IMG/VR virus record: IMGVR_UViG_2671180669_000009
From: a virus
Lineage: Duplodnaviria > Heunggongvirae > Uroviricota > Caudoviricetes
Direction: 5' to 3' (one strand)
Length of the DNA: 5,485 nt
A program made the position numbers and the translations under genes. Shown here in pieces: positions 652 to 5,431 of this stretch. The notes beneath the pieces are model-generated. The model worked only from the letters and a program-made list of their open reading frames with translations, searched no databases and was not told where the DNA came from. Position 1 is the stretch's first letter; the number at the start of each line of letters is the position of its first letter.

Positions 652-690
652 CAAAAACCCCGGACCATCAATCCGGGGTTTTTGTTTGTT
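652..690. terminator. Rho-independent terminator, bidirectional (ends the minus-strand operon that stops at 769)
   Basis: Perfect 7-bp GC-rich stem ccccgga (658-664) / tccgggg (672-678) with a 7-nt loop, flanked by AAAAA (653-657) and TTTTTGTTTGTT (679-690). Confidence 0.75.
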
Positions 691-768: not shown

Positions 769-1134
769 TCATTGATTCACCTCCTGCGGTGGTTCCGGTA
801 GCGGCATCCAGTGAGTTGAGCTCTCTACTTCAACGCCGTCTTTGTCCACAAAAGCCATCTTATTCCCGCCACGAGTGGGGCAAAAAACCTTATCCCAGGA
901 ACCGGGGAATACATTCCCGAGATCATCGAGAAGAATCACATCGCAATATTCAGCAGGAACTGCATCACTACAGCTTATCCAGCCAGCCGGAGCTACCGGA
1001 GAGTTGCCAGCCTTACGCATGGCCATTTCCACGATTTCAACCATATCTCCTGGTGGAATTTTACAAAGTTGCCCAATACATTTCTGCTGCCTGGCATATT
1101 CGAGAATGTGCTCCAGTTTGGTTCGATTAATCAT
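769..1134 (-). CDS. Hypothetical prophage protein (121 aa), last gene of the minus-strand operon
   Basis: ATG at 1134-1132 overlaps the TAA of the upstream gene (TAATG), with AAGGGAG upstream; the ORF ends about 90 nt before the terminator. No family recognised from sequence. Confidence 0.6.
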   Translation of the reverse strand: MINRTKLEHILEYARQQKCIGQLCKIPPGDMVEIVEMAMRKAGNSPVAPAGWISCSDAVPAEYCDVILLDDLGNVFPGSWDKVFCPTRGGNKMAFVDKDGVEVESSTHWMPLPEPPQEVNQ

Positions 1135-1799
1135 TATTTATCTCCCTTAAGCATGGCAGCGCGGCAGGCGTTCCAGCCATCAACATAATCAAACGTATTA
1201 CTATCGTTTGGCCCGATTTCATCCGGCACTATCGGCTCTGGTTGGATAGTGACGTTGGCAAAGGCAGCACGCAAACCGGTTTTAATTTCTTCGATTTCAT
1301 CAGAGCCAAGCGATGAATCTGACAGTGCGTGATGGAATGCGTAAGCCATGTCGTCGTTTACTGCAACCGGCACTGCCGGCGCTGCGTAAAGCGGTGTTAT
1401 ATCTGCCCGAAAATCACATGCTTTATGCAGTCGTACCCAACACTCAACTTCCGCTTTGTCAAAATATATAGCAGTGAACGTATTAGATTCCTGGTCAACT
1501 TGAGTAAACGTCACCTTCCACGCTACAGCTACGGCTTTCCATCCATCAGGTTGTCGCATTCGCGGGGCAGCATAAAGCTCATGCATTCCATCAGGCAGCG
1601 AGTGACCCACATACTCACCGAACCCGTCAATACACATGCCCCCATCTTCAACAATGCATTCCGCTACAGGCTCTGCTTCCAGTGATGCCAGAGCGATAAG
1701 CGCCAGTTCACGAATTTCACCGCCGTCTATATCGTCAATATCATCGCGGCCAGAAATGTTAGCCAGCCATTGCAGTCGCTCTTTGGTAATAGTGGTCAT
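1134..1799 (-). CDS. Hypothetical acidic prophage protein (221 aa)
   Basis: ATG at 1799-1797 overlaps the TGA of the HNH gene (ATGA). Long open frame, D/E-rich, with the motif LYAAP occurring twice (aa 75-79 and 137-141). No family recognised. Confidence 0.65.
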   Translation of the reverse strand: MTTITKERLQWLANISGRDDIDDIDGGEIRELALIALASLEAEPVAECIVEDGGMCIDGFGEYVGHSLPDGMHELYAAPRMRQPDGWKAVAVAWKVTFTQVDQESNTFTAIYFDKAEVECWVRLHKACDFRADITPLYAAPAVPVAVNDDMAYAFHHALSDSSLGSDEIEEIKTGLRAAFANVTIQPEPIVPDEIGPNDSNTFDYVDGWNACRAAMLKGDK

Positions 1800-2161
1800 G
1801 CCGTAGCCCCTTCTTGATATTTTTCAAACCAGAACACAACCGGGTCAGATTTCATTTCAACCAATCCCATACGAACCAGCGCTTTGCCTTTCCCGGACGC
1901 AAGGAATTCACGACGACCATCACTGATAATTCGTCGATAATCTTCCAGGCTACTGCAATGCTTGTGCAGATTGCATGGGTGGCATGCTGGTACCATGTTG
2001 GATATATCGTCACGTTCCTGGTGAAGCATATTTCCATCAAAACGAATGACCGGTTTTACATGGTCTGCATGCCACTTTTCGCCAAGTTCGCAGCCGCAAT
2101 AAGCGCAGCGACCACCGAACTTCATGCGCAGTTCTGCACGTTGTTTTTTCGTCAGTGCCAT
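1796..2161 (-). CDS. HNH endonuclease (121 aa, phage-type small HNH nuclease)
   Basis: MALTKKQRAELRMKFGGRCAYCGCEL..WHADHVKP..NMVPACHPCNLHK carries the CxxC / HxDH / N / CxxC-H signature. Start chosen at ATG 2161-2159 with AAGGAAA upstream; the ORF track's longer version from 2251 adds 30 residues that do not look like protein. Confidence 0.8.
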   Translation of the reverse strand: MALTKKQRAELRMKFGGRCAYCGCELGEKWHADHVKPVIRFDGNMLHQERDDISNMVPACHPCNLHKHCSSLEDYRRIISDGRREFLASGKGKALVRMGLVEMKSDPVVFWFEKYQEGATA

Positions 2162-2162
2162 A

Positions 2163-2381
2163 TCAGCTTTCCTTATACGGATTAATTTTATTGTGCAGTG
2201 TGTTGAATGACGCCCATACCACGTCGTTATACAATTCAATAACTGGCTCAATTATTTTTCCGATTATCCAGACAAAAATTAGCGGGGATATCGGTGTCAT
2301 CAACACGATAAACAGAATGAGAAACAGGAATTCTGTTGTTCTACTCTTTCGCGGATATTTTTTTCTAAATAATGTAACCAT
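2163..2381 (-). CDS. Possible small membrane protein (72 aa; basic N-terminus then one hydrophobic helix)
   Basis: MVTLFRKKYPRKSRTTEFLFLILFIVLMTPISPLIFVWIIGKII...; its TGA (2165-2163) is one base from the HNH ATG (2161), giving a stop-N-ATG junction. Weak RBS and a GC hairpin directly upstream, so the start is uncertain. Confidence 0.35.
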   Translation of the reverse strand: MVTLFRKKYPRKSRTTEFLFLILFIVLMTPISPLIFVWIIGKIIEPVIELYNDVVWASFNTLHNKINPYKES

Positions 2382-2473
2382 TCATTACCGCCCTTTCGGG
2401 CGGTCTCCTGATGATTTGAGGGTGCAGAAATCCCTCCGGTTAAGGATTAAATTTTTAACAGTGCTAAATTTAA

Positions 2474-2814: not shown

Positions 2815-2837
2815 GGTGATGCTGCCAACTTACTGAT
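2815..2837. repeat. IS1 left terminal inverted repeat
   Basis: ggtgatgctgccaacttactgat, imperfect inverted match to the IS1 right end seen at 44-66. Confidence 0.85.
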
Positions 2838-2869
2838 TTAGTGTATGATGGTGTTTTTGAGGTGCTCCA

Positions 2870-3145
2870 GTGGCTTCTGTTTCTATCAGCTGTCCCTCCT
2901 GTTCAGCTACTGACGGGGTGGTGCGTAACGGCAAAAGCACTGCCGGACATCAGCGCTATCTCTGCTCTCACTGCCGTAAAACATGGCAACTGCAGTTCAC
3001 TTACACCGCTTCTCAACCCGGTACGCACCAGAAAATCATTGATATGGCCATGAATGGCGTTGGATGCCGGGCAACTGCACGCATTATGGGCGTTGGCCTC
3101 AACACGATTTTACGTCACTTAAAAAACTCAGGCCGCAGTCGGTAA
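2870..3145 (+). CDS. insA: IS1 InsA (91 aa; zinc-finger/HTH transposition regulator)
   Basis: [39 protein letters not shown]...[12 protein letters not shown] matches the InsA sequence as I recall it. Confidence 0.95.
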
Positions 3146-3567
3146 CCTCGCGCATACAGCCGGGCAGTGACGTCATCGTCTGCGCGGAAATGGACGAACA
3201 GTGGGGCTATGTCGGGGCTAAATCGCGCCAGCGCTGGCTGTTTTACGCGTATGACAGTCTCCGGAAGACGGTTGTTGCGCACGTATTCGGTGAACGCACT
3301 ATGGCGACGCTGGGGCGTCTTATGAGCCTGCTGTCACCCTTTGACGTGGTGATATGGATGACGGATGGCTGGCCGCTGTATGAATCCCGCCTGAAGGGAA
3401 AGCTGCACGTAATCAGCAAGCGATATACGCAGCGAATTGAGCGGCATAACCTGAATCTGAGGCAGCACCTGGCACGGCTGGGACGGAAGTCGCTGTCGTT
3501 CTCAAAATCGGTGGAGCTGCATGACAAAGTCATCGGGCATTATCTGAACATAAAACACTATCAATAA
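3064..3567 (+). CDS. insB: IS1 InsB reading frame (167 aa; expressed as the InsAB' transposase via a -1 frameshift)
   Basis: [53 protein letters not shown]...HYLNIKHYQ, overlapping the 3' end of insA in the -1 frame. Confidence 0.9.
3119..3127 (+). promoter_or_regulatory. IS1 programmed -1 ribosomal frameshift motif (A6C slippery site) between insA and insB'
   Basis: TTAAAAAAC lies in the insA/insB overlap just before the insA stop; established IS1 biology. Confidence 0.7.
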
Positions 3568-3572
3568 GTTGG

Positions 3573-3583
3573 NNNNNNNNNNN
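3573..3583. other. Assembly gap (11 N)
   Basis: Run of n characters directly after the IS1 right-end sequence. Confidence 1.
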
Positions 3584-3689
3584 GCGTGATGGCAATATGG
3601 TCTTTCCGATGGCTCATAAAGAAAATTAACCTGATTACGAGGGTCATCCTCTTTTACCGGAAATAAAACGATATTGCTTAACTCATCTT
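3584..3689. repeat. 106-bp duplicate of 2709..2814 (the flank just left of the IS1), with one mismatch (2765 t vs 3640 a)
   Basis: Direct base-by-base comparison; the copy begins immediately after the N gap. Confidence 0.95.
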
Positions 3690-3705
3690 CTGGTTTTATT
3701 TCCAT
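3584..3705 (-). pseudogene. 5' portion of the zinc-ribbon ORF (start codon plus first ~40 codons); continues into the duplicated flank
   Basis: ATG at 3705-3703 preceded by AAGGAGAGGAG; MEIKPEDELSNIVLFPVKEDDPRNQVNFLYEPSERPYCHHA... is in frame with the 3' portion at 2474..2814 once the duplicate is aligned. Confidence 0.5.
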
Positions 3706-3762
3706 GCTCCTCTCCTTTGATGCGAATGCCAGCGGTAATTGAAGCCTGATAGCTAATTTCAT

Positions 3763-4185
3763 TCACAGTATCGCCTCCTGAAAATTACCCTGATAGAAAG
3801 CCAGTACACGCTGCATAGCTTCGCTCTTCCGGCACTCGCGACAGATTATATTCAGGCGCCTGTCGTAGCGGCGTATTTCTCCGTCAGGTAATGACCAGAT
3901 AAGGTCCGGATCAACAACAACCGGTTTCCTCACCTTTACTCTCGAGAGTTTTTTGCGGGCGCTTTGCCAGTCCTTGCGAGCCTGTTCAGACGGGAATAAG
4001 CCGTAGCCAGAATTATATACATCACCACTTGCGACCAGTTCTATGCATAAGCGACCGACAGACGCACGACTGATACCTGTTTCATCTGACAACTGCCGAA
4101 TCGTGACCCGACCGTCCTGATGCACGAGTTCCACAATTCGCGTCTTCAGTTCTTCCCGCTGTTCGGGAGTAAAAGGTTTCGCCAT
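3763..4185 (-). CDS. Hypothetical prophage protein with N-terminal helix-turn-helix / winged-helix-like region (140 aa)
   Basis: ATG at 4185-4183 with AGGAGG 6 nt upstream, 14 nt after the dnaC-like stop. Segment VTIRQLSDETGISRASVGRLCIEL resembles an HTH; basic C-terminal half. Confidence 0.75.
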   Translation of the reverse strand: MAKPFTPEQREELKTRIVELVHQDGRVTIRQLSDETGISRASVGRLCIELVASGDVYNSGYGLFPSEQARKDWQSARKKLSRVKVRKPVVVDPDLIWSLPDGEIRRYDRRLNIICRECRKSEAMQRVLAFYQGNFQEAIL

Positions 4186-4199
4186 AAATCCTCCTGAAA

Positions 4200-4946
4200 C
4201 TACTTAACAACCCTCGAATGGCTAACATTCGGACGCCAGCTCTCCCAGTTAAAATTCACCCAGCGCCCGCCGTTCATGACCATGCGATCCATCACCCGCT
4301 CGCCGAGCAATGTTTTCATCACCTCATAGTTCAGGTTTGTCAGCATCCCCACGCTGCGCATCGACGCTGTCCGGCGATCAACAATCTGGTGCAGCACCAC
4401 CTGCTCGTTTTTCGTCTCGCGCTGAATGCCAATTTCATCAAGAACCAGCAGATCCACTTCGCACAGCTCCCGCAAAAATTTTTCGCCTGACTGCCCGTCG
4501 TCATAGCTGGCGTGCAGGGCGCTCATAACATCAGCCACGGTAACCACAATCACTGTCTGACCGTCTTTCAGCAGGCGATTCCCGATAGCTGCCGCTAAGT
4601 GATTCTTCCCGGTACCAGGTTTTCCGCTGAACGCAAAATTTGTACACCCGGTCATCAGTTCATCGGCGATGGATTTCGCCTGGCTTAACGCGTATCGCTG
4701 GCCGTCGTTCTGCACCTGGTAATTCGCAAACGAGCATTTACGGTGCAACGGCTGGATGCCTGAGCGATTCAGAATTTTTTCCACCCGCAACTGGCGATTC
4801 AGGCGGTTGATCTCCTCGCTACGTTTCTGGCCTTCAGCAAGTTGCCACTCGCGCCACTCCGCTACCGTTCTGAATGGGGCGGTTACATGTGGCGGGGTCA
4901 GTCGGCGGATGCGTTCCAGAACGCCGCCTGTCGCAATATTTTTCAT
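4200..4946 (-). CDS. DnaC-like replicative helicase loader (AAA+ ATPase, 248 aa), prophage paralog
   Basis: Walker A FSGKPGTGKNHLAAAIG, Walker B DLLVLDEIG, and MLTNLNYEVMKTLLGERVMDRM; collinear and roughly half-identical to E. coli DnaC as I recall it (e.g. RSGIQPLHRKCSFANY vs RSGIRPLHQNCSFENY). Confidence 0.92.
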   Translation of the reverse strand: MKNIATGGVLERIRRLTPPHVTAPFRTVAEWREWQLAEGQKRSEEINRLNRQLRVEKILNRSGIQPLHRKCSFANYQVQNDGQRYALSQAKSIADELMTGCTNFAFSGKPGTGKNHLAAAIGNRLLKDGQTVIVVTVADVMSALHASYDDGQSGEKFLRELCEVDLLVLDEIGIQRETKNEQVVLHQIVDRRTASMRSVGMLTNLNYEVMKTLLGERVMDRMVMNGGRWVNFNWESWRPNVSHSRVVK

Positions 4947-4952
4947 GGTCCG

Positions 4953-5431
4953 TTACCCCCTGAAGCCTGGCGGGATCGCACTGTCCGGCAACGAGACGGT
5001 GTTAACCTGTCGGAGCAACGTCTCAGGCCGAACACCTTTCGGCGCGAACAGGCCCTGGTATTCATTGGCGATGCTGTGTCGAATCACCTGCTCAGGTGTA
5101 AAACCCTGCTGACGGAATTTTTCCAGTTCCCGTATCGCCCCGTTAGCGCCCTGCTCCGTTCGAATCGGTTTTCGCAATGCCTGTCTGAACCGGACCCACT
5201 CATGCCAGAGTGTTTCCGGCAACCAATCGGGCAGCTCAATAGCCTCCGGCTCGAATTTTTTAGACGCTCGTTTTTGGCGAGGGGGAGATCAGTATTTAGA
5301 TCTTCCTCTTCCTCTTCCTCTTCCTCTGGTAACGCTTTTTGATCCGTTTGTGTAACGCTGGCAGCGTTACCTTTTCGTTTCAGTTCGCGTATTTTTGTTA
5401 CTCGCTCGTTTGTAACTGAAGTGGTCAACAA
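4953..5431 (-). pseudogene. DnaT-like primosomal protein gene with an apparent frameshift (N-terminal frame 5431..5084, C-terminal DnaT-like frame 4953..5288)
   Basis: C-terminal frame ends ...LRQVNTVSLPDSAIPPGFRG*, resembling the DnaT C-terminus, and sits directly upstream of the dnaC-like gene as in the chromosomal dnaT-dnaC pair. The N-terminal frame (TTG start, basic region, E8 tract) is offset by one base; the two join cleanly if the G5 run at 5281-5285 were G6. Confidence 0.55.
5301..5327. repeat. Hexanucleotide tandem repeat (tcttcc) x4.5, encoding a poly-Glu (E8) tract on the minus strand
   Basis: tcttcctcttcctcttcctcttcctct read directly; in frame with the N-terminal part of the DnaT-like ORF. 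Confidence 0.9.

Follow-up and report, generated by a model that had tools for sequence, protein, structure and literature searches.

An HNH nuclease gene and its coupled neighbours in a Rac/lambdoid prophage: evidence for independently assorting accessory cassettes

Four tightly coupled genes and a terminator

We analysed 5,485 nucleotides (nt) of viral DNA (IMG/VR record IMGVR_UViG_2671180669_000009; Caudoviricetes), a stretch referred to below, at its full length, as the window. On its minus strand, from 2381 to 769, the list of open reading frames (ORFs) contains four consecutive genes, which encode a 72-amino-acid (aa) DUF4014 protein, a stand-alone HNH endonuclease, an acidic 221-aa protein and a DUF551 protein (Table 1). 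The same four genes are annotated by RefSeq in E. coli FDAARGOS_944, at 99.8% DNA identity. An initial annotation, made from the letters of the window alone, had described a coupled block closed by a strong terminator and had offered two readings of it: an ordinary nin-region cargo set, or an uncharacterised nuclease-based module such as a prophage defence, anti-defence or exclusion system.

Table 1. Features of the block and its flanks
Feature	Position	Strand	Basis
DUF4014 protein, putative small membrane protein, 72 aa	2163..2381	-	PF13198, phrog_1832, WP_000256997.1
Stand-alone HNH (beta-beta-alpha-metal) endonuclease, 121 aa	1796..2161	-	PF01844, phrog_2118, WP_001229296.1
Acidic 221-aa mosaic protein	1134..1799	-	no Pfam family; piecewise PHROG matches
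DUF551 protein, 121 aa	769..1134	-	PF04448
Predicted bidirectional intrinsic terminator, before the hok/sok locus	652..684	both	terminator scan and RNA fold
Intergenic leader 5' of DUF4014, two hairpins	2382..2473	-	sequence and fold

All three junctions described at the outset (TGA-n-ATG, ATGA and TAATG) were found in the sequence. The TGA of the DUF4014 gene (2165-2163) is followed after 1 nt by the HNH start codon, the ATG at 2159-2161 read as 2161-2159 (TAAGGAAAGCTGATATG); the HNH stop and the start of the 221-aa gene share ATGA at 1799-1796 (GAAGGGGCTACGGCATGA), and the stop of the latter shares TAATG with the start of the DUF551 gene at 1136-1132 (TAAGGGAGATAAATAATG). A Shine-Dalgarno-like purine run can be read 5' of every junction start in the block. 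The HNH gene likely begins at the ATG at 2161, and a longer, TTG-initiated ORF is unlikely to be the gene. This tight coupling is the local norm in the prophage and does not mark out the four genes, because at least nine other same-strand gene pairs of the FDAARGOS_944 prophage overlap by 1 or 4 nt or sit 1-3 nt apart.

The terminator could likewise be confirmed; it lies 85 nt beyond the last stop codon, outside the 769-2381 span to which it had been assigned. Folding of the minus-strand RNA gave a 15-bp GC-cored stem (-23 kcal/mol, z = -3.7) with a U5 tail (GGGGUUUUUG), and none of 200 shuffled sequences folded as well. The terminator scan matched 13 pairs. A-runs and U-runs flank the hairpin on both strands, and its predicted structure can work in both directions.

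Proteins encoded by the block

The 72-aa protein is a full-length DUF4014 member (PF13198, E = 1.3e-25, 90 bits against a cut-off of 23.2; phrog_1832), and in this it resembles epsilon15 gp46-like proteins. Its basic N-terminus is followed by a single hydrophobic helix at about residues 17-41, and we tentatively regard it as a possible single-pass inner-membrane peptide. In older records (HK225, g341c, ArgO145) members of the family are called 'O-polysaccharide acetyltransferase inhibitor', epsilon15 gp46-like. A literature search found no paper mentioning DUF4014, or 'acetyltransferase inhibitor' together with epsilon15, and the name is treated here as an unverified legacy label.

The HNH protein scored 28.1 bits against PF01844 (cut-off 21.4) and matched phrog_2118 with E = 5e-57; its isoelectric point (pI) is 8.8. 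Aligned with its homologues from HK225 and g341c, it shows an intact HNH motif, in which the two CxxC pairs (C19/C22 and C60/C63) and the catalytic residues D33-H34, N55 and N64 are kept across three subfamilies. At low confidence, we take it to be an active enzyme that nicks or cleaves DNA, either non-sequence-specific or structure-specific, with a place in phage DNA metabolism or as a selfish cassette. A PDB sequence search returned one marginal match (4h9d, E = 0.058), and a literature search found no paper on this HNH in lambdoid early regions.

Three more specific identities were considered for it and set aside. Lambda NinG/Rap (PF05766) aligned only over the HNH-like core (profile positions 93-147 of 193) at 18.2 bits, below the cut-off of 25.4. 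Matches to PtuB of Septu and retron systems were weak core matches as well (best E = 3e-8 over about 70 residues; TIGR02646 21.8 against a cut-off of 52), and neither a PtuA ATPase nor a reverse transcriptase was found in the window or at the FDAARGOS_944 prophage locus. The third candidate was the terminase-associated packaging HNH of HK97 gp74 type, which reportedly (work attributed to Kala et al. 2014) adjoins terminase and portal genes in an HK97-like module. A packaging-accessory role is unlikely here, because the terminase of FDAARGOS_944 is lambda-like and lies about 8.5 kb downstream, past hok, Q-like late-regulator genes, tRNA genes and lysis genes. The initial annotation held that small phage HNH nucleases are usually found next to terminase genes. 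This is true of the Bas77 relatives, whose HNH gene lies 5' of the terminase; it does not extend to relatives in early-left and early-right accessory regions of lambdoid and P22-like phages, nor to the one beside the ligase gene in RB49.

The 121-aa protein encoded at 769-1134 belongs to DUF551 (PF04448, E = 3.4e-19, 69.9 bits against a cut-off of 22, residues 51-117). Its model has two N-terminal helices (residues 1-41, a phrog_24004-type module) and a small four-stranded beta-domain, with a predicted local distance difference test score (pLDDT) of 83-90 over the domain. This beta-domain gave no significant fold match among solved structures, and the PDB sequence search returned no match for either this protein or the 221-aa protein.

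The 221-aa protein is acidic, as had been stated (pI 4.34, 39 D+E against 17 K+R), and has no Pfam or NCBIfam match. It matches 3,289 database proteins, and a map built from the best 120 of them, together with piecewise PHROG matches, divides it into modules A (1-46), A2 (47-90), B (about 91-136) and C (137-221). The modules recur separately, at 50-96% identity, in proteins named DUF551, DUF550 or ead/Ea22-like; in many relatives a single chain runs from module A directly to module C and on to a DUF551 domain, as in a 264-aa protein at locus L041. Several motifs recur at the joints of these proteins: ALASLEAEP(V/I)A, GWNACRAAML and GNSPVTPDGWISCS. Read in this way, the 221-aa protein is a patchwork of at least four modules. 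AlphaFold2, run on a 44-sequence alignment, returned a mean pLDDT of 50 with no residue above 70, a model unfit for a fold search; the poor result probably reflects a mosaic alignment that is shallow for each module.

The initial annotation could assign neither of these two proteins to a family and proposed profile searches and structure prediction for both. These assigned and modelled the DUF551 domain and left the 221-aa protein without a family, although it can now be described as a four-module member of a mosaic pool associated with DUF551, DUF550 and Ea22. Both proteins can be placed, in a family or pool that is itself functionally uncharacterised. Taken by their sequences, the 221-aa and DUF551 genes are neighbouring members of one modular acidic pool shared with Ea22-variant C-terminal domains and YfdS. 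DUF551 has been described as a portable domain in mosaic Ea22 variants (PMC10834534), and for YfdS of CPS-53, a DUF551 protein, H2O2-sensitivity is the one reported phenotype (PMC4776307). By analogy with Ea22 the two proteins probably bind host or phage partners and so tune development, a suggestion made at low confidence.

Neighbours of the block genes across related loci

We compared the surroundings of the HNH gene in the best 80 of its 469 IMG/VR relatives, all at least 96% identical. The ATGA overlap and GGCATGACNACTWTT are kept in 75 of these 80 loci. The gene on the 3' side always starts with MTT[I/F/N]T; beyond this the proteins, of 114-364 aa, fall into at least eight unrelated types: MTTFTREQL (32 loci), MTTITKERLQ (the 221-aa type, 16 intact), MTTITKERLL, MTTFTNSKL, MTTITNKKQ, MTTFTDKEL, MTTITRENA and MTTN-HPAH. 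A 114-aa protein, present in 29 of the 32 MTTFTREQL loci, is the commonest.

The 221-aa and DUF551 genes occur as a pair in 17/80 loci. The flanking hypothetical gene and hok do not differ between the 17, and neither does the DUF977 gene where the contig extends that far. By these flanks the loci represent a single prophage lineage; the combination, which the initial annotation suggested looking for across unrelated prophages, did not turn up beyond it. Binned DNA identity gave the same picture: the HNH gene aligns in 80/80 loci (96-99%), the 221-aa and DUF551 genes in 17-33, and the segment 671-790, which reaches into the first arm of the terminator stem, in 53, whatever cassette precedes it. 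The rest of the stem (611-670) is common to 22/80. The space between the HNH gene and the terminator behaves as a variable slot, since identity drops over the two genes and returns at 671-790.

Complete genomes gave a similar result. Of 5,426 complete E. coli genomes, 385 have at least 80% of the HNH gene and 2 at least 80% of the 221-aa gene; the whole block is found in 2. With more than 380 carriers the HNH gene is widespread, and it occurs independently of the two genes to which the initial annotation had tied it. A conserved multi-gene system was rejected as an identity for the block, the combination being limited to one lineage, 17/80 IMG/VR loci and 2/5,426 genomes.

An HNH protein identical to that of the window (WP_001229296.1) is encoded 3' of yfdR in the CPS-53-like prophage of UTI89, and another in the Stx phage ArgO145, where it lies in another accessory region, a few kb away from the integrase gene; feature order suggests that this is the early-left arm. 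The UTI89 prophage (NC_007946.1, 4987008-4995358) is of CPS-53/KpLE1-like type and lies beside yjjG, with the HNH gene after yfdP-yfdQ-yfdR and two hypothetical genes. On its 3' side lie unannotated remains of two modules of the 221-aa protein, A and C, followed by a DUF551 pseudogene. K-12, going by the gene cluster named in the title of PMC4776307, holds yfdS (DUF551) at the place that matches the UTI89 HNH gene.

The other genes of the block also change partners. The closest full-length homologues of the 221-aa protein (74% and 66% identity) have no HNH gene beside them; the former is encoded directly after a DUF4014 gene and the latter after two other cassettes. The element that holds the 74% homologue (metagenome scaffold, ENA ERZ28660700) encodes P2 gpA-type replication, ParM/StbA partition and P2-like portal and terminase proteins, and is possibly a phage-plasmid. 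Lambdoid and P2-like elements therefore draw on the same cassette pool. DUF4014 genes of at least 88% identity are followed by HNH in 33/79 loci and in 46/79 by five other cassette types (MTTITREN, MATLTKKE, MATLQELI, MTELTKEQ and MTITTKEQ), attached through the same TATAAGGAAAnCTGAwATG junction.

Mosaic cassettes and competing explanations

We interpret the block as four independently assorting accessory cassettes of the early-right operon and not as a co-evolved system, with a probability of about 0.8. Of the two readings offered at the outset, it is the ordinary nin-region cargo set that free assortment supports. The junctions are stereotyped: a Shine-Dalgarno sequence, a stop codon that overlaps or abuts the ATG, and near-identical first codons, either ATG-ACN-ACT-WTT (MTT[I/F]T) or ATG-GCA-ACT (MAT/MAL). 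One and the same HNH gene, or DUF4014 gene, meets many unrelated neighbours at one and the same junction. The stop/start overlap recurs, together with the same first four or five codons, in more than a dozen small genes that are otherwise unrelated.

These short conserved junctions are compact translation-coupling signals, and a plausible mechanism is that they also act as crossover points for the relaxed homologous recombination behind lambdoid mosaics. If they are crossover points, coupling would therefore be a property of the junction type and no sign of functional partnership. The genes of the block would be co-transcribed from the early rightward promoter; the terminator, which would separate this operon segment from hok/sok, may end early transcription or be read through under antitermination. 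Experiments and genome comparisons attribute lambdoid mosaics mainly to homology-driven exchange across short, diverged stretches, and the median mosaic is about 400-500 bp (PMC3945230). The length of the HNH gene, 366 bp, may be set beside this size of about 0.4-0.5 kb.

Several points weigh against this interpretation. The DUF4014 and HNH genes are adjacent above chance expectation (59/79 window-type loci) and occur in the reverse order in HK225 and g341c. On comparative data alone, a functional interaction in this lineage is still conceivable. The HNH gene often precedes some member of the modular acidic pool, a possible loose association at the level of the class. Finally, the conserved junction, at about 15-23 nt, is shorter than the minimum of about 30 bp for Red-beta recombination (PMC3945230).

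Among the alternatives, the one that survives best, although we consider it improbable as the full account, is that the HNH gene is a free-standing homing-type selfish cassette whose breaks spread the gene itself and exchange its neighbours. This is compatible with cassette assortment and would add a driver to it. The HNH gene does form an island of 96-99% DNA identity, present in 80/80 loci, between variable flanks, the identical protein is found in three prophage types and operon positions, and relatives of 42% identity are isolated genes in T-even-like phages such as RB49. Against homing, the 79 DUF4014 loci contain no clean pair of empty and filled sites, for another cassette fills the HNH-less place in the 46 noted above. 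There is also no intron or intein context and no conserved two-sided flanking target, and the DUF4014 and acidic cassettes, which are not nucleases, assort as freely, so that ordinary recombination is enough.

It is rather less probable that the DUF4014 and HNH genes form a two-gene unit, for example a membrane-tethered or membrane-regulated nuclease, with the 221-aa and DUF551 genes as unrelated cargo. This pair is the strongest residual association in the data and is far from obligatory. DUF4014 lies immediately 5' of HNH with identical spacing in 55/79 window-type loci, and within 1.2 kb in 59; the HNH homologues of HK225 (62%) and g341c (50%) are overlapped at their 3' end by a DUF4014 gene (Pfam E = 1e-44 and 6e-52, respectively), so that both orders occur. 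Yet 20/79 window-type loci lack DUF4014, which is present in just 7/79 HK225-type and 4/80 g341c-type HNH loci, and a DUF4014 gene may equally be followed by a non-HNH cassette or, in the P2-like element, directly by a homologue of the 221-aa protein.

We would give similarly small odds to a more ambitious version of the cassette interpretation, in which the region is a cassette-exchange array: the junction (MTT[I/F]T or MA[T/L]LT) would be a dedicated recombination linker, HNH breaks would drive the shuffling, and the acidic proteins would be a diversifying arsenal against host or rival-phage targets, for instance as anti-defence. Here the shared junctions and the free assortment are the observed part, and the role of HNH and the targets are hypothetical. 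Whatever the fate of that proposal, the junction sequences that cassettes share offer a specific case on which the idea of linker-type recombination sites in lambdoid mosaics can be tested.

Prophage accessory regions often hold defence genes, and a nuclease-based defence, anti-defence or superinfection-exclusion system of three or four genes, in which HNH would be the effector and the 221-aa and DUF551 proteins would serve to sense or to regulate, would fit the tight coupling and the common terminator. We regard it as very improbable. The PtuB matches on which it could lean are generic matches to the HNH core in PADLOC; the 72-aa, 221-aa and DUF551 proteins have no PADLOC match at all, NCBIfam likewise yielded no defence family past the HNH core, and PtuA, reverse transcriptase and any other partner are missing. 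Moreover, HNH genes of at least 96% identity have at least eight unrelated genes behind them, the combination is limited to one lineage and to 2 of the 385 HNH-bearing E. coli genomes, and homologues of the 221-aa protein exist without HNH. The nuclease-module reading of the initial annotation finds no co-occurrence and no partner genes to sustain it. The result is mainly a negative one: overlapping stop and start codons and a common terminator do not count as evidence that genes of a lambdoid accessory region work together, and the candidate 'nuclease system' falls apart when its neighbours are set side by side from locus to locus.

Least probable of all is a pair of toxin and inhibitor on the model of a colicin DNase with its acidic immunity protein: the gene for the basic HNH protein does overlap by 4 nt that for an acidic protein, and seven alternative downstream proteins, one per type, have pI values of 4.4-5.4, yet cognate pairs co-vary, whereas here a near-invariant HNH precedes unrelated proteins of 114-364 aa, and the same acidic proteins are found with no HNH nearby.

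Relation to known phage regions

The block resembles the nin region of lambda and the 'ea' and exo-xis regions of P22 and lambda in its place in an early operon between replication genes and a late-gene regulator. Like other lambdoid accessory regions, it consists of small, dense, overlapping and mostly uncharacterised genes with internal terminators, in a setting where gene-sized pieces of about 0.4 kb are exchanged between phages and defective prophages (PMC3945230). In HK225 an HNH homologue (62%) is located in the nin region itself, between ren and ninB. Unlike lambda, the block contains none of lambda's nin genes, and the replication module of the window is of Rac type (YdaU/YdaV/DUF977) and not O/P. 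Family names exist for three of the genes, and RefSeq lists the fourth as 'hypothetical'; what lies at the locus is a lineage-specific combination in a mosaic region of a well-known kind.

With YfdS and the C-terminal domain of the Stx-phage Ea22 variant 2, the DUF551 protein of the window shares the W52-I-S-C-S56 and HWMPLPEPP end motifs and its acidic character. The domain is portable and elsewhere fused to many N-terminal modules (PMC10834534), whereas in the window it is encoded by a separate 121-aa gene with its own two-helix N-terminus, coupled to the 221-aa gene. The 221-aa protein is acidic and mosaic like lambda Ea22 and P22 Ead (PF13935) and shares module C with some members of that family; for example, module C is found at 84% identity inside a protein (P0044) that carries the Ead/Ea22 Pfam domain. 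Membership in the family was nevertheless rejected, as the 221-aa protein has no Pfam match to it, and neither BLASTP (E = 0.49) nor hhalign (probability 0.1%) relates it to lambda Ea22 itself.

Stand-alone phage HNH proteins of the same size include HK225 gp56 (62%), identical proteins in ArgO145 and Stx2_EH2011, and the terminase-proximal Bas77 type (49%). They keep the CxxC...DH...N...CxxCN motif and the MKFGGRCAYCG and VVFWFE.YQ terminal segments. The Bas77-type gene is terminase-adjacent, unlike that of the window. In the early-left region of the P22-like Salmonella phage g341c, two different HNH genes lie within 1.7 kb (2219-2911 and 3501-3923); one of them encodes an EaE/HNH fusion, and the other, the homologue of the window HNH, goes under the mistaken name 'DNA repair ATPase'; a 'mosaic protein' is encoded between them.

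DUF4014 leader and prophage setting

The 5' end of the DUF4014 gene is the sole junction of the block without translational coupling. Its leader, 2382-2473, folds at -26.4 kcal/mol (z = -3.0) and contains a hairpin, ACCGCCC-GAAA-GGGCGGT, with a 7-bp GC stem and a GAAA tetraloop, which ends 5 nt 5' of the ATG and spans the sole purine-rich stretch fit to serve as the DUF4014 ribosome-binding site. A second hairpin (GAGGG...CCCTC) lies further upstream. The leader aligns in about 60 of 80 related loci at about 94% identity, and its hairpins may have a translational or processing role.

The minus-strand gene order is YdaU-like gene, DnaC-like loader gene (4200-4946), DUF977 gene (3763-4185), 118-aa hypothetical gene, block, terminator and hok/sok. 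In FDAARGOS_944 the order continues past hok with DUF1367/DUF1364/DUF1133, tRNA genes, lysis genes and lambda-like terminase and head genes. Judged by this order, the block is located in the early-right accessory ('nin-like'), post-replication region of a Rac/lambdoid E. coli/Shigella prophage. The initial annotation was right to place it downstream of the replication genes; it does not follow them directly, as the DUF977 gene and the 118-aa gene, the latter disrupted by IS1, come between.

The hok/sok locus occupies 159-483 on the minus strand and comprises a Hok/Gef ORF (Pfam E = 1.7e-21), an overlapping mok-like extension and sok (RF01794, 118 bits, E = 2.5e-27). An Rfam scan found no match within the block and returned sok alone, downstream.

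The 118-aa gene (phrog_1621 type) is interrupted by a complete IS1 at 2816-3572, and 13 N (3573-3585) stand in place of the final bases of the IS. The element is flanked by a direct duplication of 106 nt at 99% identity (2709-2814 = 3584-3689), compared with the usual 9-bp target duplication of IS1. This arrangement suggests two pieces joined at a repeat during scaffolding or assembly, and not biology. The 118-aa gene is intact in FDAARGOS_944, where an IS3-family element lies nearby instead. Positions 1-56 of the window are the same as 3517-3572 and represent the right end of a second IS1 copy, adjoining the hok locus. Copies of the 221-aa protein are numerous in Shigella flexneri and Shigella sonnei, several of them cut at contig ends. 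Two IS1 ends within 5.5 kb, together with the Shigella copies, suggest a Shigella-type, IS1-rich genome.

At 5290-5335 on the minus strand, (CTCTTC)-type repeats encode a poly-Glu run, EEEEEEEED, in the YdaU-like gene. In FDAARGOS_944 this gene is annotated by RefSeq as two partial pseudogene pieces with a gap between them.

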